A stretch of 64,000 nucleotides of DNA from NCBI GenBank assembly GCA_963717145.1, contig OY970325.1, positions 2,976,001 through 3,040,000 on the forward strand, in the 5' to 3' direction. Of the stretch, positions 6,409-40,075 are shown piece after piece. Under the pieces are notes generated by a model, which was not told the origin of the DNA, did no database searches, and worked only from the letters and a program-made list of their open reading frames with translations. Origin of the DNA: an uncultured Armatimonadetes bacterium (lineage in GTDB: Bacteria; Armatimonadota; UBA5829; DTJY01). A program made the translations under genes and the position numbers. Each line of letters opens with the position of its first letter. Positions within the stretch are counted from its first letter, which is position 1.

Positions 6409-6829
6409 ATGACTGATTTCGAACCGAAAATCCTTGCTCTCTGCTGCCATTACTGCGCATATGCCGCCGCGGACCTCGCCGGCTCGATGCGCCTGCAGTA
6501 TCCCGCCGAATGTGCGCGTCCTGCGGCTGCCGTGCACGGGGAAGGTCGACGTGGACTACCTCATGAAGGCATTCGAGCAGGGCGTGGACGGCGTGATCGT
6601 CGCCGGGTGCCTCGAGGGCGGCTGCCACTTCCAGGAGGGCAACCTCTACGCCCGAAAGCGCGTCGGCCTCGCGAAGGATGTCCTCGCGGAAGCCGGCATC
6701 GAGGGCGAGAGACTGGAGATGTTCAACCTCTCCTCCGCCGAGGGCAACCGTTTCGCCGAGATCGTACAACAAATGACCGAAAGGATCAAGGAGTTGGGAC
6801 CGAACCCGATCAGGGGTTGTGGGGTGTAG
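6409..6829 (+). CDS. mvhD: MvhD/FlpD [2Fe-2S] subunit (one indel near 6505)
   Basis: CCHYCAYAAADLAGSMRLQYP followed by PNVRVLRLPCTGKVD...GVDGVIVAGCLEGGCHFQEGN. Confidence 0.9.
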
Positions 6830-6905
6830 GTTATGGGTTGTGGGTTTTGGGTTATGGGTTTTGGGTTCTAGGTTTTGGGTGTCGGGTTGGGGGTTAACGG
6901 TTTTC
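6815..6905. repeat. Tandem degenerate heptamer tract (GGTTxTG)n, about 13 units
   Basis: ggttgtg gggtgta ggttatg ggttgtg ggttttg ggttatg ggttttg ggttcta ggttttg...; contains the mvhD stop codon. Confidence 0.9.
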
Positions 6906-6919
6906 AGGGAGGGATTCGT

Positions 6920-7378
6920 TTGGCGAAGTTGAATTCGTTCCGCGATTTGAACGTCTATCAGGAACTCAAGAAGTTGCACCTGATTGTACATGAGATCACC
7001 CTTGGCTTCCCCAAGTTCGAGACATATGAGCTTGGTTCGCAGCTCAGGCGATCGTCGAACTCTGCCCCTGCCATTGTCGCCGAAGGATGGGGCAGCAGGC
7101 ACACCAACATCTACATTGAGGCCGTCGATCGTGCTATTGGTGAGGTGAGAGAAACCCAGCACCACCTGGATGTCGCATGTGATAAGGGTTATCTGGACAC
7201 CCGGCGCTTTCAGGACCTGGACGCGGAATATGAAGGCTGCAATCGAATGCTTGAGTCGCTGCACCAGTCACTGAGCCAGTGGAAGGGCAGCACACGGACC
7301 GGCAATATGATCCGTGAAGAACCTGCCGTCTATGAAGTCGGAGACCCGAACCCAGAACCCATAACCCAAAACCCATAA
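6920..7378 (+). CDS. Four-helix-bundle protein (23S rRNA IVS / bAvd-like family)
   Basis: TTG start after AGGGAGG; SFRDLNVYQ...FPKFETYELGSQLRRSSNSAPAIVAEGWG...GEVRETQHHLDVACDKGYL. Confidence 0.88.
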   Translation: MAKLNSFRDLNVYQELKKLHLIVHEITLGFPKFETYELGSQLRRSSNSAPAIVAEGWGSRHTNIYIEAVDRAIGEVRETQHHLDVACDKGYLDTRRFQDLDAEYEGCNRMLESLHQSLSQWKGSTRTGNMIREEPAVYEVGDPNPEPITQNP

Positions 7379-7436
7379 CCCAAACCCATAACCCAGAACC
7401 CGTAACCCAGAACCCATAACCCATAACCCGTAACCC
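7341..7436. repeat. Tandem heptamer tract (xxAACCC)n, about 13 units, reverse complement of 6815-6905
   Basis: agaaccc ataaccc aaaaccc ataaccc ... gtaaccc; ends just before the GGAGG ribosome-binding site of metV. Confidence 0.9.
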
Positions 7437-8354: not shown

Positions 8355-8420
8355 TAGGTGTCCGGCAACAACTCCGCCGTACTACTAAGGCAGACTCCAG
8401 CCGGGAAGAGGTCCCCAGCC

Positions 8421-11400
8421 ATGCCGTTCTCGCTGGAAAAACAGTTAAGGCTTTTCGGTCCTCAGCTTTTCGAGGAGCTTTGTCACAAGCTGATCGCAGG
8501 TCCCGACGGCACGGCTTTCCACGTCGAGGGGAAGGGCGGCGACGAAGGGATCGACATCTTCTCCGGCCCGCGAGGCGTCCCGAAGTCGGAGCGGAACGGA
8601 GAGAAGCTCCACGTATGGCAGGTCAAGTTCTTCCCCGACGGTCTGAAGGAGTGCCAGCGCGGGCAGATCAGAGAGTCCTTCAAGCGCGTGATGGACAAGC
8701 ACGAGCCGGACACGTGGACTCTGTGTGTCCCCGTGAACCTGGAGCAGGACGAACTCGACTGGTGGGATCAGTACAAGGCCAAACACACTGAGGTCGAGAT
8801 GAATCTTCTCGACGGTGGAAACGTCGTGAAGCTTGCGATGGAGCCGCAGCACGCCTCGATCCTCAGCCAGTATTTCATCGGCCCCTCCCATGAAGGTGCC
8901 ACCGACAAGATACTGAAGCGGCTTAACGATTTCGAGGGGGTGCCGGAGAAGCTCGAGCAGGCAGAACGCGCAACCAAGCCAAAGACGGACTTCTACGACG
9001 GCGCCGTCGCCGACTGGAACGACATCCTCAAGAGACGCGATGCATACAGGGAGAAGACCGCCGAGCTGTGGCAGTTTGTCCATGACAGAGTGACGAATCC
9101 CGGCGGCAGCGTGCCGTTCATCGTTCTGACCGGCGAGAGTGGCGAGGGAAAGACAACCATTCTGAAGCGCTTCGCCGCCGGGCTGGTGGACGCCGGATAC
9201 AAAGCCGTCTACTGGCATAAGCCGTTTTCGGAGAAGCTCTCCCCCGAGCAGTTTGCAGACCTAGGGGATGGCACGGTTGCATTCATATTCATCGACAAGG
9301 TCAGCAACTTCGACCTACACACCCTCAATGGCTTTCTCGATGGCTTGCGGTGCATCCCTATTCGCCCCGTGGTCATCGCCGCAGCGATCACTTCTCTCTG
9401 GGACGATCTGACCCGCGATCCGGAGAACTACGCGGACTTCCGGCGGATTCGGCTGGAGAGGATGACTCGCAGAGATATCCTCGCGCTCCTCGACAAACTG
9501 ACAGAAGACCCCGAGCATGCTGATGAATACCTTGGGAAACTCGCCGGGCACACCCGTGAAGAGCAGGTGCAGGTATTCGAGGGGAAATCGAAGAGCCAGC
9601 TTCTCGTCGCGCTCCTGGAGGCGAAATACGGTGTCAAGTTCAAGAAGTTTGTGCTGGACGAACTGGCAGAACTGCACGAACGTCACAAGGGTTGTCTTAG
9701 AGAGGCGTGCGACTACGTAAGCGCCTTACATCGCCTCGATCTCCCCATGCCGAAGTCGATGCTGGAGAGGCTCCTTCCGGGTTGCGGTGACCTCGAACGC
9801 GAGGTATTCAGAAAGACCCAAGGCCTCATCCAACTGCTTGCCGAGGGAGGAAACATCGTCACGCGTCACTCTCTGATTGCCCAGGTCATCTATGAAGACA
9901 GTCGCGGGCAGGAGGAATGGTATAAGAGGATCATCGCTGCAGCCCTGGGCAGTGACGAGGAAAGCCTGATGGGCCGTATGATCCACACGATCAGAGTTTC
10001 CGGAGAACGCGAGCTTGCCATGAGGCTTCTCCTCTGGGCCTCTGTGCGGTTTCCCTGCAGCCCAACCTTCCTCTTCATGCACGGGCAGCACTCTCGTGCA
10101 ACCGATGATATCGCCGGAGCTCGCTTGTTCTTTCGCAAAGCCATTGATCTTGATCCTTCACATGCGCTTACTCTTAGGGCTTGGGCAATGTTGGAAAGGG
10201 ATGAACGCAACACCGGCTACAAGGACGACCCACGACCCTATACGGCGCGCTGGCTGTTTGGCAAAGCCGTCGACGCAGACCCAAGCGCGGCTTCAGTCTG
10301 GCTAACGTGGGCGGCGATGGAAAGGCAAAGACGCAATGTCGGTTCTTTGGACGAACCGGAACCGCATACCGCAAGATGGCTCTTCCGGAAGGCTACCCAG
10401 GCGGTTCCCAATGACATTCATATCAGACTCGCATGGGCGATGATGGAGAAGGAGCAAGGCAACATCGGCGAGGAAACGGATCCCGCGGCATGTACCGCCA
10501 GATGGCTCCTCCGCAAGGCTGTCGAGCTTGATCCAACGAGTGCACACTGCTGGCAGGTTTGGGCGGCGCTGGAAAGGGATGAAGGCAACGTTGGTGATCG
10601 TGAAAACCCAGCTGAATACACGGCCAGATGGCTCCTGCGGAAAGCTCTTGAGGTCGATCCCGCGCATATCCCTAGCATGCATACGTGGGGAATCTTGGAG
10701 AAGGAACAAGGTAACATCGGGGAACGCGAAGATCCCTTGGATTGCACCGCAAGATGGCTCTTCCGCAAGGCAACGGACACAACTCCCGAAGCACCCCACA
10801 CCTGGCATGCCTCGGCCGTGATGGAGATGGATGCAGGAAATGTGGGCGATGAGGATTGCCCTCAAGAGCATACCGCTAGATGGCTCTTCCGCAAGGCGGC
10901 GGACGCCGATCCGAAGAGTGCCCATGTCTGGCAGGCATGGGCAGCCATGGAGCACAAGCAGGGCAATACTGGACCGCTCGACGGCTCGAAGGAATACTCC
11001 GCCAGATGGCTCTTCCGCAAGGCGGCGGACGCCGATCCGAAGAGTGCCCATGTCTGGCAGGCATGGGCCATCATGGAGAAGGAGCAAGACAACATCGGAC
11101 CGCTCGACGGCTCGAAGGAATACTCCGCCAGATGGCTCTTCCGCAAGGCGGCAGAAGTCTACCCAAAGGATGCCCCTGCATGGCAGGCGTGGGCCATCAT
11201 GGAGAAGGAACAGGGAAACATCGGCCCGCTAGATGGCTCCAAGGAATACTCCGCCAGATGGCTCTTCCGCAGGGCCGCCGAGGTTGACCCCCGTGCTGCC
11301 CCCACCTGGCAGGCGTGGGCCGTCATGGAGAAGGAACAGGACAACATCGGCACACTCGACGGCTCCGACCCATACTCTGCCAGATGGCTCTTCCGCGAGG

Positions 11401-12578
11401 GCGTCAAGGCCGACCCGAACATGCCCCATACCTGGCAGGCGTGGGCCGTCATGGAAAAGGAGCAGAAGAACGTCGGCGCGCCCGACGGTTCCGACCCATA
11501 CTCCGCCAGATGGCTCTTCCGTGAGGGCGTCAAGGCCGACCCCAAGAATGCCCATACCTGGCAGGCGTGGGGCGTCATGGAAACGGCCGAGAAGAATGTC
11601 GGTGCCCCGGACGGCTCCGAACCTTACTCCGCCAGATGGCTCTTCCGCAGAGCAGAGGAAGCCGATCCTGACCATGATTCCATCTGGCGGCCATGGGCAG
11701 CATTGGAGATGAGGCAGGGCAACATAGGCCAGATGTGCGACCCGAAGAGATATACGGCGCGATGGCTCTGTCGGAGGGCTATCGAGGTCACCCCTAGAGC
11801 CGCATGGGCTTGGCAAGCATGGGCGATGCTGGAAGCTGAACAGGGGAACATCGGCAACTGCAAGCGACCGGCGCCACATACCGCGAGATGGCTCTATCGC
11901 AAGTGTGCCGAGACGGCCGATCTAGACTCAAGCACGTGCTACACCTGGGCGGTACTAGAGGCGGAGCAGGGAAACATCGGCCAGAAGGCCGACTTTGAGG
12001 AATTCACGGCTAGGTGGCTATTCCGCACATCAGTTGAACTCAGTCCGAACTACGCGGGGGCTTGGCACAAGTGGGCGCTGATGGAGATGAGAGAGGGAAA
12101 TCTCGGCGATCCGGACGCCCCAGAGGAATACACCGCCCGGTGGCTTCTTCCCAAGGCCATGTCACTCGACACGAAGAACGGTCGCCTGCTGACACAGTGG
12201 GCAACAATGGAGAAAGCCCAGGAGAATTGGGCCGAGGCGGAACGCCTCTACAAGAAGGTCTTGGAGATCACCAGCAGTCCTGTGAAGAGACGGGGTGTCC
12301 ATCGAACCATGGGGATGATGATGCTGTGGCTTGGCAGGGCGGAAGAAGCCGCAGAGCATCTGGAGTCGGTGACTGATGGGAATACTACGGATTACATGGC
12401 TCGTATATACCTGGCATCAGCCCACGCGACACTGCATAGCTGGGACGATTCAGACGCGCAGTTCCAGATCGCCATGGGGATGAGTCCCGGCAACTATGGG
12501 GTTCAGGACCTCTACCACGTAATGCTCGGCTACAGAGACAGAATCGAAGCCCTGGAGACCGGGGTGAGTGACGAGTGA
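8421..12578 (+). CDS. Nuclease-STAND NTPase-HAT/TPR repeat protein (Avs/NLR-like defence candidate)
   Basis: N-terminal FEELC..GGDEGIDIF..WQVKFF (PD-(D/E)xK/Mrr-like). Walker A IVLTGESGEGKTT and Walker B-like FIFID. Sixteen 42-aa ARWL repeats followed by C-terminal TPRs. Confidence 0.8.
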   Translation: MPFSLEKQLRLFGPQLFEELCHKLIAGPDGTAFHVEGKGGDEGIDIFSGPRGVPKSERNGEKLHVWQVKFFPDGLKECQRGQIRESFKRVMDKHEPDTWTLCVPVNLEQDELDWWDQYKAKHTEVEMNLLDGGNVVKLAMEPQHASILSQYFIGPSHEGATDKILKRLNDFEGVPEKLEQAERATKPKTDFYDGAVADWNDILKRRDAYREKTAELWQFVHDRVTNPGGSVPFIVLTGESGEGKTTILKRFAAGLVDAGYKAVYWHKPFSEKLSPEQFADLGDGTVAFIFIDKVSNFDLHTLNGFLDGLRCIPIRPVVIAAAITSLWDDLTRDPENYADFRRIRLERMTRRDILALLDKLTEDPEHADEYLGKLAGHTREEQVQVFEGKSKSQLLVALLEAKYGVKFKKFVLDELAELHERHKGCLREACDYVSALHRLDLPMPKSMLERLLPGCGDLEREVFRKTQGLIQLLAEGGNIVTRHSLIAQVIYEDSRGQEEWYKRIIAAALGSDEESLMGRMIHTIRVSGERELAMRLLLWASVRFPCSPTFLFMHGQHSRATDDIAGARLFFRKAIDLDPSHALTLRAWAMLERDERNTGYKDDPRPYTARWLFGKAVDADPSAASVWLTWAAMERQRRNVGSLDEPEPHTARWLFRKATQAVPNDIHIRLAWAMMEKEQGNIGEETDPAACTARWLLRKAVELDPTSAHCWQVWAALERDEGNVGDRENPAEYTARWLLRKALEVDPAHIPSMHTWGILEKEQGNIGEREDPLDCTARWLFRKATDTTPEAPHTWHASAVMEMDAGNVGDEDCPQEHTARWLFRKAADADPKSAHVWQAWAAMEHKQGNTGPLDGSKEYSARWLFRKAADADPKSAHVWQAWAIMEKEQDNIGPLDGSKEYSARWLFRKAAEVYPKDAPAWQAWAIMEKEQGNIGPLDGSKEYSARWLFRRAAEVDPRAAPTWQAWAVMEKEQDNIGTLDGSDPYSARWLFREGVKADPNMPHTWQAWAVMEKEQKNVGAPDGSDPYSARWLFREGVKADPKNAHTWQAWGVMETAEKNVGAPDGSEPYSARWLFRRAEEADPDHDSIWRPWAALEMRQGNIGQMCDPKRYTARWLCRRAIEVTPRAAWAWQAWAMLEAEQGNIGNCKRPAPHTARWLYRKCAETADLDSSTCYTWAVLEAEQGNIGQKADFEEFTARWLFRTSVELSPNYAGAWHKWALMEMREGNLGDPDAPEEYTARWLLPKAMSLDTKNGRLLTQWATMEKAQENWAEAERLYKKVLEITSSPVKRRGVHRTMGMMMLWLGRAEEAAEHLESVTDGNTTDYMARIYLASAHATLHSWDDSDAQFQIAMGMSPGNYGVQDLYHVMLGYRDRIEALETGVSDE
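10240..12200 (+). repeat. Coding tandem repeat, 126-nt (42-aa) unit, 16 copies
   Basis: agatggctcttccgcaagg recurs at 126-nt spacing (10878, 11004, 11130); the central copies are nearly identical. Confidence 0.92.
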
Positions 12579-12758
12579 TTCGCAGAGGGCAAGAGCTGCG
12601 AGGACACCATGTGCTGTGAAGTCTCTACGACCCAGTCCACAGATGGATGATCGCCCCATAGACGCCCATATGAGCTATACCTTCGATAGAGCTGTCCGCT
12701 CGGACTCGCTTTGAGCACTATTCCCATGATCTATCCGCCATCTTCCTCTAGACCCACA

Positions 12759-12790
12759 ACCACCCCGGAGGTTTTCACCCCCGGGGTGGT
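12759..12790. terminator. Hairpin between convergent genes
   Basis: accaccccggaggttttcacccccggggtggt. Confidence 0.5.
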
Positions 12791-12994
12791 CGTGGTGATG
12801 CGTGGTGCATGTTGCTTTATTGCCTTACTACCTGCGATACTCCCCGCCGCGCGGGCTACTTTTCCGGTATCCGGCATCCGGTATCCTGCTGATCCTGCAC
12901 TGCTTCCGGTGACCGGTATCCGACCTCGCCCCGCCGGCGGAGAATGCGGCGCGCGGTTCACATTCCGCATTCCGCATTCCCAATTCGCAATTCC

Positions 12995-13660
12995 CTAGGC
13001 GGCGATCGTCGCCTGGAAGACGTCCGACCATGAGCCGGCCTCGCCTTTCTGGTTGACCCAACGCAGACGGTAGTACGCCATCTTGCCGGCGTCTCCCTCC
13101 GCGTGTTCCACCACGGCGGGCGTGCGACCCGCGGTCTTGGCGTAGGTCATGTCGCTCGGCCCGGAAGGGGCTTCGCCGACCTTCACCCAGATCTCGCAAC
13201 CGCGAATGCCCGCGGGCTTCGCCTTGCTGACGCCCGCGTCACCCTCGTTCTCGAAGCTGACGATGTGCTTCAGCGGCTGGCCTCCGTTCGCGCGACCGGT
13301 CGGCCTGAGCGTTGGCGGCATCTCCGCCGGGACGTAGGCGCTGCCACGGACGGTGATGCGCATCCCCGTGCGATCGGTGTCCGTGACCAGCGGACCGGAC
13401 TGGAACCGATTCACCAGCGCGCGGATCTGCTGCTCGAGATCCGTCCGCTGCGTATCCTTCGTGACTGTCGCGCCCTGGGCCTGCGCTTTCCACATGATCT
13501 GCTTGTTCAGCGCATCCTTCCAGAGCGGGGTCGCGGCCACGATATCGGCGATGTCTTCGTCAGTGAAGCCCATCGTCTCCATCCTCGGCGTCGCGTAGGT
13601 CAGGAAGTTATCGACCCATTCGTCGAACTCCGCATCTTTGGTTGGCAAGTAATTTGCCAT
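12995..13660 (-). CDS. Hypothetical protein, N-terminal helical region + C-terminal FN3/Ig-like beta domain (paralog 1)
   Basis: GGAGG ribosome-binding site; YLP..D.EF..W...F; AKPAG..G.EIW.K.GE; AYYRLRW....GE.G.WS....ATIAA. Aligns end to end with 39059-39733. Confidence 0.85.
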   Translation of the reverse strand: MANYLPTKDAEFDEWVDNFLTYATPRMETMGFTDEDIADIVAATPLWKDALNKQIMWKAQAQGATVTKDTQRTDLEQQIRALVNRFQSGPLVTDTDRTGMRITVRGSAYVPAEMPPTLRPTGRANGGQPLKHIVSFENEGDAGVSKAKPAGIRGCEIWVKVGEAPSGPSDMTYAKTAGRTPAVVEHAEGDAGKMAYYRLRWVNQKGEAGSWSDVFQATIAA

Positions 13661-13775
13661 TCTTATCACCTCCTCTCATGCAAGTGTTACCTCCATTATC
13701 GGCCAACTTATGGTAGAACCACAGAGTTTCAGGCAGTCGCTTTTATAGAAAAATGGCTCGGAATTTGGTATGGTA

Positions 13776-14006
13776 GAAAAACTCATTCTTTCCTTAGAGG
13801 GAACGGCGGATTCCTCGGAGGGAATCATTCTTTCCGCAGAAGGAATGGCGGATTCCTCGGAGGGAATCATTCCCCCTGCAGAGGGAACGGCGGATCCTTT
13901 CGAGGGAATCATTCCCCCTGCAGAGGGAACGGCGGATCCTTTCGAGGGAATCATTCCCCCTGCAGAGGGAACGGCGGATCCTTTCGAGGGAATCGTTCCC
14001 CCGTCA
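13776..14006. repeat. Array of eleven 21-nt units (42-nt A/B superunit)
   Basis: GAGGGAAcggcggatcctttc alternating with GAGGGAAtcattccccctgca. Confidence 0.95.
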
Positions 14007-14362
14007 GCCCTGAGTGTGCCGGTGAATGACGGCATGTATCGAAGGGCGGCCGGAGGCGAGGGTGCTGGGGGCGGAACCCGCCTGAGCAGGGATGGCACCG
14101 GGGCACGGGGGTGTCAAGGACAGATGCCCTGCGCTGGTCGGATGGCGACCCGAAACACTGGCTCTACAATCGGGATTTCCGGGTTGGACGGAAGTGCGCT
14201 CTACAAGCCAAGCTCGGCGGTCCAACCCTCAAATCCCGGTACACCGAGTTCGATGGTTGGATTGTCTGATGGTTTGATGGTAAGGCCGGAGCGCGATGCG
14301 CTCCGGCCTTGATCATGCCACACCCTCCGAGTCCGAGTAGGCCGATGGTGTGGTCGCCTGTA

Positions 14363-35298: not shown

Positions 35299-35510
35299 CT
35301 GTAGGGGAGGCCTTCAACGGCCTCCCGCTCGGGCGGGCGTAGAAGCACCGCCCCTACAGCACATCGTTCCTGGTCCGTAGGGGAGGCCTTCAACGGCCTC
35401 CCGCTCGGGCGGGCGTAAGAAGCACCGCCCCTACAGCACATCGTTCCTGGTCCGTAGGGGAGGCCTTCAACGGCCTCCCGCTCGGGCGGGCGTAGAAGCA
35501 CCGCCCCTAC
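35299..35510. repeat. BIME-like array: three ~77-bp units of REP family A + inverted REP family B
   Basis: GTAGgggaggccttcaacggcctccc-gctc-gggcgggcgtagaagcaccgcccCTAC three times, with linker agcacatcgttcctggtcc. Confidence 0.92.
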
Positions 35511-38855: not shown

Positions 38856-38972
38856 GTCCTGAGTGCGCCGGTGAATGACGGCGTGTATCGAAGGACGGTG
38901 GAACATGCACAAAGGTTGGTGGCACAAGGCCGTCCTTCGATACACGCCGTCATTCACCGGCGCACTCAGGAC
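38856..38972. repeat. Palindromic doublet (GTCCTGAG...CGAAGGAC family); a single related copy at ~14007-14047
   Basis: gtcctgagtgcgccggtgaatgacggcgtgtatcgaaggacgg followed by an inverted copy. Confidence 0.88.
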
Positions 38973-38993
38973 TAGCGGGTTCTGGGAAACAAG

Positions 38994-39026
38994 AAAAAGG
39001 GCGGGACACCTTCCGGCATCCCGCCC
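38994..39026 (-). terminator. Rho-independent terminator after paralog 2
   Basis: Minus strand gggcgggatgccggaaggtgtcccgccc followed by TTTTT. Confidence 0.7.
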
Positions 39027-39058
39027 ATTCCGACTTCTGACTCCTGACTCCTTGCCAC

Positions 39059-39733
39059 CTACGCGGCAATCGTCGCGACATCCACCTCGCTCCAGTCGCC
39101 TTTCTCACCGGAGCGGCTGATCCACCGCATGCGATAGTAGGCCGGCTGGTTCGCATCCTCAGCAGCGAACTCGACCACATACGGGCTGCGGGTCGCAACG
39201 CCGACCATCCGCATGTCCGTGTTGTTGATCGGCGGCTCGCCGATCTTCAGCCAGACCTCCGCGCCGAGCGCGCCTGCGGGCTTGGCCCTGCTCGTGCCGG
39301 TATCCGTCGAGTTCTGGATGCGGAGCACGTGCTTCAGGTGCGGGCGGATGTCGATGTTTGCGGTCGGCCTGTTGTCCTGAAGCGTGACGCTCTGAGGAGT
39401 ATTGCTCGATCCCCGGAGCGGTATCGCCATCTCCTGCCGGTCGACGTTCGTCGTGCCGGGGTGGGTCTGGATTCGGGCGACCAGCGGGCGGATGAGTTCC
39501 TCACAAGCTGCGCGGTTGATCTTCTTGTCCTCACTCGCAGAGGCTGCGGCCGTCTTGGCGGCATCCCATGCGAGCCGCGCCGTGTTGAAACCCGGCTCTG
39601 CGGCGGCAATATCGGTGACATCGCCGGCCACGAGTCCGAACTTGGCGAGATTCGAACTCACGTAGGCGATGAAAGTGCTCATCCACATCGTGAATTCGAG
39701 ATCGCTGCTCGGCAAATAGGTTGAAGAGGCCAT
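39059..39733 (-). CDS. Hypothetical protein, helical + FN3/Ig-like domain (paralog 2)
   Basis: Collinear with 12995-13660, sharing YLP, KH, AKPAG, AYYR.RW, GE.G.WS and ATIAA*. Confidence 0.85.
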   Translation of the reverse strand: MASSTYLPSSDLEFTMWMSTFIAYVSSNLAKFGLVAGDVTDIAAAEPGFNTARLAWDAAKTAAASASEDKKINRAACEELIRPLVARIQTHPGTTNVDRQEMAIPLRGSSNTPQSVTLQDNRPTANIDIRPHLKHVLRIQNSTDTGTSRAKPAGALGAEVWLKIGEPPINNTDMRMVGVATRSPYVVEFAAEDANQPAYYRMRWISRSGEKGDWSEVDVATIAA

Positions 39734-39859
39734 GTCTATGCCCTCACTTGATGGCCGACGACGCGCCGGCCGGTAGTCGGCGCAGTGTGACCCGAGCCGC
39801 CGTTCATATTATCGGCATTCAGGGCAGACTTCTCCAGCGATAGACGTGTAACCGCTCGA

Positions 39860-40075
39860 TCGGGGAACGGCATTCCCAAGCCGGGGGGTGGCATAAGTAT
39901 GCACGCGAACGCCTCAGGTATGACTACCCACGTCACCGGGAGGCATGGGAACGTGATAAGTATGCATACCCAAAGCACCGGTAGGCCGGGGATCGCCATC
40001 GGGACGCATACTTCTGAGATCAGGATTCGTGGGAATATGGTTTGCGGATCGAGGCACGGGAGGATGGGTGCGCGT
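39860..40075. repeat. Degenerate 21/42-nt periodic array
   Basis: gggaac/gcgaac/gggaac/gggatc/gggaat at 39863, 39905, 39947, 39989 and 40031; ataagtatgca twice, 63 nt apart. Confidence 0.7.

Follow-up and report, generated by a model that had tools for sequence, protein, structure and literature searches.

A family of small bacterial proteins encoded downstream of locus-specific repeat arrays with a period of two helical turns

What is the role of a tandem repeat upstream of a gene when its period, position and strand are kept from copy to copy while its sequence is free to change? The question is raised by a 64,000-nucleotide stretch of DNA, referred to here as the window, from an uncultured Armatimonadetes bacterium (GenBank assembly GCA_963717145.1, contig OY970325.1, positions 2,976,001 to 3,040,000), in which two genes of one unnamed protein family, p1 and p3, each lie downstream of a periodic array. 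An earlier note, made from the sequence of the window alone, had treated gene and array as one unit and had suggested phased protein-binding sites, a processed repeat RNA or a heptad-repeat peptide as explanations of the array. This genome alone has now yielded 25 such units, and other genomes about 100. Of the three suggestions, the phased binding sites give the best fit, the heptad peptide is rejected and the processed RNA has gained no positive support.

At the first locus, p1 (12995-13660, minus strand, 221 aa) is an open reading frame (ORF) with a Shine-Dalgarno sequence, GGAGG, 8 nt ahead of its ATG. Tandem Repeats Finder (TRF) reports an array upstream of it at 13796-14002, with a period of 42, 4.9 copies, 92% matches and a score of 309. 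When written in a 21-nt register the array covers 13785-14005 on the minus strand as ten full units and one partial unit (approximately 10.5 units, or five 42-nt super-units), in which a head that reads TTCCCTC along the gene strand (and GAGGGAA on the plus strand) is followed by alternating bodies containing inner palindromes. Autocorrelation reaches an identity of 0.97 at a shift, k, of 42. The constant heads and alternating bodies are therefore as the earlier note had described them, as is the position upstream of the gene, but the distance given there, about 115 nt, was too short; between the near edge of the array and the ATG at 13660 there are 125-136 nt.

The second locus is more degenerate. 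The family gene p3 (39059-39733, minus strand, 224 aa) shares 91 of 223 residues with p1 (41%, E 5e-54). TRF makes no array call upstream of it, and array 2 (39834-40069, minus strand) was delimited by autocorrelation and by inspection in register, which shows a 42-nt period with two alternating conserved cores, one of them palindromic. Windowed autocorrelation is highest at k=42, with an identity of 0.58, followed by 63, 84 and 21. Over 60 dinucleotide shuffles the highest identity at whatever k averaged 0.42, with a standard deviation of 0.019, and never exceeded 0.49. The possibility raised in the earlier note, that this periodicity would prove no better than that of shuffled sequence, can be set aside. 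Written in the 42-nt register, array 2 repeats a CGTTCCC core along the gene strand and so has the same type of head (GGGAA/TTCCC) on the same strand as array 1.

Both loci carry GCCGATAAT, as previously noted, on the gene strand between array and gene, at 13695-13703 and 39808-39816. In both cases a sigma-70-like promoter occupies this interval. At p1 GCCGATAAT has the appearance of a -10-like promoter element. At p3 it is contained in a sigma-70-like promoter found by a promoter-site search (39808-39836, minus strand; TGGAGA, a 17-nt spacer and GATAAT); the region upstream of p3 holds one promoter-like site against a shuffle mean of 0.5. No gene-strand terminator was found between array and gene at either locus.

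The whole genome (5.37 Mb in one contig, 60.6% GC) contains 25 paralogs, and a profile built from them recovers the same 25 and no others among 30,801 open frames. All 25 begin with M-x(1-4)-[DN]-Y-[LIV]-P and they split into two subfamilies, A and B. An upstream periodic array was found at every one of them using TRF and autocorrelation. Sixteen have a best period of 21, 42, 63 or 84, four of 22 or 66, two of 43 or 86, and one each of 41, 85 and 24. Taking an autocorrelation identity of at least 0.55 as a signal, the 21-bp period family is present at 24 of the 25 family genes and at 5 of 600 randomly chosen, well-supported control genes (28 of the 600 controls reach 0.55 at any period). Units are up to 98% identical within an array and are turned over between paralogs. 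Nearly all of the arrays are unique in the genome, the exceptions being the related arrays of p1 and p2, which are recent duplicates, and a set of solo twin arrays.

These exceptions are informative about what is copied and reused. The p1/p2 duplication runs from -298 to +909 relative to the ATG, from the start of the array to a hairpin past the 3' heptamers, at 91% identity; similarity stops at +909, which is window position 12752. Since the duplication spans exactly the distance from array to terminator hairpin, the module has been copied as one unit. The hairpin in question is GC-rich (12759-12788, minus strand), lies at the distal end of the duplicated unit and is likely to mark the transcript end of the p1 module. 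Solo arrays built of the units of p5, p11, p12 and p21 occur with no family gene adjoining. Those with p5 and p21 units sit upstream of unrelated genes, which is a sequence-specific reuse of the unit. The genome coordinates of the solo arrays are 4716193-4716387 (p5 unit), 895087-895273 (p21), 546392-546997 (p12 and p11) and 1805382-1805668 (p11); the genes downstream of two of them are a radical SAM gene and a YcxB-like gene.

Is the association confined to this genome? Among 40 relatives, the family is present in five of ten genomes of the same taxonomic family and in none of 30 that belong to the class but to another family. Searching 1.84 billion representative proteins with a profile gave 853 at E<=1e-30 and 4242 at E<=1e-10; among the 150 matches listed most are about 220 aa long, with a range of 179-351. 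A scan of one genome per species gave 248 relatives. The loci of 80 of these were sampled across phyla, 79 having enough upstream DNA. The carriers belong to Acidobacteriota (Pyrinomonadaceae, Blastocatellia), Planctomycetota (Phycisphaerae, Pirellulales and others), Cyanobacteria (Oscillatoria sp. PCC 10802, Hormoscilla), Bacteroidota (Microbacter, Paludibacter), Chloroflexota (Dehalococcoidia), Ignavibacteria and Armatimonadota.

The periodicity goes with the gene. The earlier note had held that its proposal would fall if homologs in other genomes showed no upstream periodicity. In related genomes 18 of 19 loci (four genomes) peak at k=21, 42, 63 or 84, the units again being different, and of the 79 cross-phylum loci 55 reach 0.55, with 53 of these peaking at 21, 42, 63, 83 or 84 over an upstream GC content of 33 to 71%. 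When 122 loci were pooled, a signal was present in 97 and the base period was 20.5-22 in 94 of those, being exactly 21.0 in 83 of the 94 and 22.0 in 4. The arrays have a median length of 7.3 units (range 3 to 19), stop short of the start codon by a median of 141 nt and are organised into super-units of 42 or 63 nt in 27 of 95 cases. No neighbouring ORF family recurs beyond close relatives at the 80 sampled loci, and tblastn of the family protein against 50,697 phage records and 72,556 plasmid records gave no match; in IMG/VR only five relatives were confirmed among 29 pattern matches. Full-text literature searches, which did not extend to supplementary files, found no paper tying a bacterial protein family to 21-bp upstream arrays. 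The family and its arrays thus look like an undescribed gene-plus-array module.

The protein gives few clues from its sequence. For p1 there is no Pfam family at E<=1, the fn3 model included, the best PHROGs match has E 0.064, the best NCBIfam score is 16.1 bits against a cut-off of 80, no PADLOC model matches, and the ESM Atlas returns unnamed clusters only. In the AlphaFold model (pLDDT 87.9) residues 9-99 form an N-terminal helical hairpin that contains a 55-residue helix, and about residues 112-221 form a C-terminal fibronectin type III (FN3) domain. The latter is a solid prediction: the domain has the seven-strand beta-sandwich topology, aligns with 4yfe_B over 98 residues (VIA-align Z 12.0, rmsd 2.2) and has a Foldseek E of 2.7e-05. 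The helical and FN3-like character proposed in the earlier note is thus borne out by the model. A two-copy model of p1 has an ipSAE of 0.71 against 0.00 for the best control. This mark is reached by 20 of 30 proteins whose solved structure is a pair of one chain, and by 1 of 23 whose solved structure is a single chain. At least 95% of contacts are the same between runs, the partner has a pLDDT of at least 83, and at the interface the two helical domains pack antiparallel through residues 2-103. The model therefore supports a predicted symmetric homodimer in which a helical-hairpin core carries two FN3 domains. The C-terminal AA of the protein was considered as a ClpXP-type degron and dropped, the ends across phyla being T-I-[AGT]-[AG].

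What, then, might the array do? Our preferred reading, held tentatively and at rather less than even chances, is that it is a set of locus-specific, often palindromic protein-binding sites, phased at two helical turns and controlling the adjacent promoter. Each family gene would be a self-contained module of array, promoter, gene and short-repeat 3' region. The array would act as DNA, presenting 3 to 19 short sites exactly two turns apart, a spacing that brings all of them to the same face of the helix beside the promoter, and cooperative binding of a dimeric factor would give switch-like control, whether activation or silencing, of the single adjacent gene. This reading is suggested by the period locked to two turns, the palindrome-rich and locus-specific cores, the adjacency to promoters and the reuse of a unit type at a few other promoters. 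Inverted-repeat arms of at least 6 nt are present in 32 of 95 consensus units, where 6.4 would be expected from shuffled units. The variable positions within units are contiguously clustered in 10 of 43 arrays. In some arrays, p10, p21 and p3 for example, only a core of 7-12 nt is kept, at a strict spacing of 21 nt, while the spacers drift. The -10-like 8-mer CCGATAAT, which occurs 108 times genome-wide, lies sense-upstream of 10 of the 25 family genes, and either it or a full promoter-like site is placed between array and gene in p1, p2, p3, p4, p6, p13 and p14, all of subfamily A.

Several observations weigh against such a platform. Almost half of the consensus units (45 of 95) have no inverted repeat of 5 nt or more. 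In p16, p17 and p24, of subfamily B, the -10-like motif is upstream of the array, which would therefore be transcribed there. About ten non-coding arrays of the same period adjoin unrelated genes in this genome. Units match at 18.4 of 21 positions between proteins of 90-100% identity and at 12.2 between those of 70-80%, against a background of about 10.5, a turnover that outpaces the drift of most protein-DNA specificities. The protein itself is not obviously a DNA-binding one. Structure searches recognised no DNA-binding fold in it, and specifically no ribbon-helix-helix or winged helix. The N-terminal helical domain has no PDB match in Foldseek at E<=0.001, and alone gives generic helical matches, the best with a VIA-align Z of 6.2 (rmsd 3.2, 80 residues aligned), which is below the informative level for helical proteins. 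The conserved residues K68, R72 and R80 belong to the predicted dimer interface and not to an exposed surface. Of the 25 paralogs, 20 have a computed pI below 8, and most have an acidic N-domain.

We infer both that the array is bound by a protein and which protein this is. The most economical candidate is the family's own dimer, binding its own array in an autoregulatory manner, since no other gene travels with the module, regulators of the LytTR and AraC types are missing and a symmetric dimer is predicted. Against self-recognition stand the acidity of most paralogs, the absence of any fold recognised as DNA-binding and the very fast turnover of units, and we hold it to be doubtful, while the binding platform in general stays a tentative reading. 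A bolder version, which we also consider unlikely, would make these proteins a new class that binds nucleic acids sequence-specifically. A symmetric dimer with a helical-bundle core would present two FN3 domains to palindromic sites, each paralog reading only its own fast co-evolving array and a cooperative filament providing a bistable, self-specific switch. Palindromes of the GGGAA...TTCCC type are read by the Rel and STAT factors, and units of this form in p1, p24 and a further locus, L042, suggest a likeness to these in the proposed reading of palindromes by FN3 domains.

The first alternative to the binding platform is that the array is transcribed and the repeat RNA cut into 21- or 42-nt units which bind the cognate protein, as in type III toxin-antitoxin systems, paralogs being insulated from one another by their own repeats. 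The layout is like that of type III loci, where locus-specific tandem repeats directly precede the protein gene (PMC3401426). Many insulated paralogs per genome together with a fast turnover of repeats would suit co-evolving pairs, the units often contain inverted repeats, and the -10-like motif ahead of the array in p16, p17 and p24 is what transcription of the array would need. However, the interval between array and gene shows no enrichment of terminator-like hairpins, which occur there on the sense strand at 9 of 95 loci and on the antisense strand at 5 of 95, and in subfamily A the promoter-like elements fall between array and gene. Among 1063 pairs of inverted-repeat arms the mismatches comprise 64 G.T and 64 A.C, with no bias towards wobble pairs. 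The array thus does not resemble a selected RNA hairpin and is better regarded as working as DNA than as RNA. Furthermore, there is no PADLOC match, the fold is a helical hairpin with an FN3 domain and not an endoribonuclease, most family proteins are acidic, and a 21-nt unit is shorter than the 31-62 nt range of the known families as tabulated (PMC3401426). On balance we think this explanation improbable. A guide or antisense action on the module's own transcript was also rejected: the longest exact match averages 8.76 nt in sense and 8.64 nt in antisense, compared with 8.59 and 8.50 for the transcripts of other loci.

The second alternative is a copy-number rheostat, in which slippage of 21-bp units would step the output of the promoter while keeping the helical face, giving heritable and reversible shifts in how a variable protein family is expressed, with no need for a locus-specific binder. 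Such slippage would go well with the homogenised units within arrays and their turnover between paralogs. Between two congeneric species the orthologous arrays differ by roughly one unit (9.7 versus 8.8 and 7.4 versus 7.7), and a metagenome contig from a relative of about 87% identity has 68 letters in place of the 152 at 13727-13878, the difference of 84 being 4 x 21, though as a single contig this is weak evidence. Tandem repeats are in general enriched in prokaryotic intergenic regions (PMC12418385). Slippage alone, however, explains neither the period of 21.0 in 83 of 94 arrays across seven phyla, nor the phased cores amid drifting spacers, nor the enrichment of palindromes, and polymorphism within a population was not seen directly. 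The rheostat is, in our estimation, no likelier than the processed RNA.

Two further explanations are very unlikely. In the first, DNA shape alone would suffice: in-phase bends every two turns would curve the DNA and wrap it around RNA polymerase or a nucleoid protein, and this would account for a period that is kept while the sequence is free. A dinucleotide wedge model, with assumed parameters, gives 1.96-2.00 turns per 21 bp. In the same model, however, 22 arrays have a mean ratio of end-to-end to contour length of 0.922 against 0.886 for tandem shuffled 21-mers, i.e. they are straighter than the controls, and 11 of the 22 are no more curved than a typical non-repeat shuffle of the same array. 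Palindromic units would also cancel their own bends. Intrinsic curvature as a property of the arrays is thus not supported under those assumed parameters. In the second, the arrays would be neutral or selfish satellite DNA that happened to collect upstream of family genes. Other repeat classes are indeed abundant in this genome and solo arrays exist, but the association is specific (the contrast with control genes given above) and ancient, holding in seven phyla over GC contents of 33 to 71%, and we give this explanation hardly any weight.

The suggestion that the arrays encode heptad-repeat leader peptides, seven codons making 21 nt, can be dismissed almost entirely: 21 is divisible by three and open frames such as ORF 13676-14098 (minus strand) do cross the arrays, but periods of 22, 41, 43, 83 or 85 occur (8 of the 25 paralogs here have a period that is not a multiple of three, namely 22 in four, 43 in two, and 41 and 85 in one each), codon-position bias in unit variability is seen in 0 of 43 arrays (mean share 0.421 versus 0.428 with positions permuted), that ORF begins inside a dispersed repeat element, and the observation that the arrays are stop-free in several frames, although true, has no value as evidence because a 21-nt unit without a stop in a given frame leaves the entire array open.

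The 3' side of the genes also carries repeats. As the earlier note had reported, a tract of heptamers follows the stop codon at both loci. That of p1 (12957-12995, minus strand; TRF periods 7 and 14) resembles the short tandemly repeated repetitive (STRR) type and falls within the p1/p2 duplicated unit, with a further tract at 12863-12886 (minus strand; TRF period 7, 3.4 copies). That of p3 (39032-39052, minus strand; TRF period 7, 3.0 copies, 92%) is followed by a hairpin with a T-run, like an intrinsic terminator, at 38999-39026 on the same strand, having a 12-pair stem with nine G-C pairs. Repeats of period 7 are a genome-wide class here, with 115 TRF rows. Taking TRF scores of at least 50, they follow 7 of the 25 family genes compared with 113 of 2691 genes, and at the cross-phylum loci they are present in 14 of 73 compared with 3 of 73 control windows. 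Since they are enriched directly after family genes, the heptamer tracts may be a loose part of the module. As tandem heptamers in intergenic DNA at many loci they resemble the STRR-type repeats of cyanobacteria and the TAACTGA repeats of Beggiatoaceae (PMC4679880); the likeness is limited to the 3' tracts, and the 21-bp arrays are distinct from them.

Other repeats were noted in the window. Two heptamer arrays at 6814-6895 (GGGTTGT x11.7) and 7349-7436 (AACCCAT x12.7) are reverse complements of one another about 450 nt apart and could pair as a long hairpin around the intervening DNA. At 35301-35510 a 77-nt tandem repeat is present in 2.8 copies of 98% identity with palindromic elements of the GTAG type. 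A dispersed repeat of about 50 nt lies directly upstream of array 1 at 14001-14051, with an inverted pair at 38860-38975 and two copies at 100% identity upstream of p2. It is very deep in four metagenome runs, reaching a summed contig depth of about 1000x, and it makes up most of the coverage of the window locus in these runs, parts of the gene being covered in one run only. Convergent to p1 is an ORF of 1406 aa (8358-12578, plus strand) containing approximately six 126-nt (42-aa) repeats at 10746-11650, and p2 likewise has 126-nt repeats upstream. Outside the window, p8, p11 and p12 (genome positions near 5282690, 460274 and 2876927) share a conserved leader some 120-330 nt upstream of the start codon, comprising a GACAAT -10-like box and then a conserved GC-rich hairpin. 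Further non-coding 21-nt arrays lie at genome positions 1161107-1161280, 1189080-1189244, 1292442-1597 and 4826975-4827139, each with 4.7-8.3 units of unique sequence. Downstream of the first three are unrelated genes, namely those for a GH99-like secreted protein and a beta-helix protein and an ABC permease operon.

The phased-site reading and its alternatives have different consequences. A large unnamed family with a cis element whose geometry persists in seven or more phyla although its sequence varies freely bears the mark of a molecular ruler, and none of the known rulers considered (a 21-bp direct-repeat regulator, a type III antitoxin RNA, an iteron system or a heptad peptide) fits it. 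If a protein reads the arrays, then there would be dozens of naturally insulated protein-site pairs per genome, and the co-evolution of binding specificity could be followed in a clean system. If that protein is the family's own, as many as 25 mutually insulated protein-array pairs in one genome would form a natural orthogonal set, and the module would be an undescribed regulatory or identity system extending across phyla. If no protein reads them, a purely periodic property of DNA would control a conserved gene family, which is equally unexpected. In any case an unannotated family of hypothetical proteins becomes a directly testable module, and a scan for 21-bp phasing upstream of genes offers a simple rule for finding more members.

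It remains to compare the module with systems already described. The closest in layout are the type III toxin-antitoxin loci (toxIN, cptIN and tenpIN), which have a locus-specific tandem array directly upstream of a small protein gene, several insulated copies per genome and a repeat sequence that co-varies with the gene (PMC3401426). Their repeats are 31-62 nt long in 1.9-5.6 copies (PMC3401426, Table 2; Blower et al. 2012), whereas the module, with its 21-nt unit and median of 7.3 units, is outside both ranges. The short palindromic terminator between repeats and gene has no counterpart in the hairpin counts given above. The type III promoter precedes the repeats. The -10-like motif of the module follows the array in p1-4, p6, p13 and p14 and precedes it in p16, p17 and p24. 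An endoribonuclease of the ToxN, CptN or TenpN kind was not recognised in PADLOC or Pfam or in the predicted fold. Membership of type III was therefore rejected on repeat size, terminator and toxin family.

Nor is the array one of CRISPR type with constant repeats and unique spacers, its units being head-to-tail with no unique spacers between them. Plasmid Rep-iteron and ParR-parC-type systems have direct repeats about two turns apart upstream of the gene for a dimeric binding protein, which they presumably regulate. The module shares with these its two-turn direct repeats upstream of the gene of a predicted dimer, with sequences that vary and a geometry that is kept, but it is chromosomal, occurs in up to 25 copies per genome and was found with neither a plasmid or replicon context nor a partner ATPase, there being no recurrent neighbour at 80 loci and no plasmid or phage match. 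LytTR and AraC/XylS promoters have two sites spaced by 21 bp just upstream of the -35 element, with one consensus across the regulon. The spacing near a promoter is the same in the module, where in contrast 3-19 units of locus-specific sequence are present. Regulators of these types were rejected as readers of the arrays, since this genome does not encode them in matching numbers (LytTR, PF04397, 0 matches; the AraC-type HTH_18, PF12833, 1 match). The HTLV-1 long terminal repeat and the SV40 and HCMV enhancers also place 21-bp units upstream of a promoter as platforms for transcription factors, a layout like that of the module, but they are eukaryotic, have about three units, are served by host factors and are not known to be linked to a protein family. 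Type III loci, iteron or centromere arrays and 21-bp direct-repeat promoters each fail in a defining feature that was tested, and the view of the earlier note that gene and array could be assigned to no named system is upheld.

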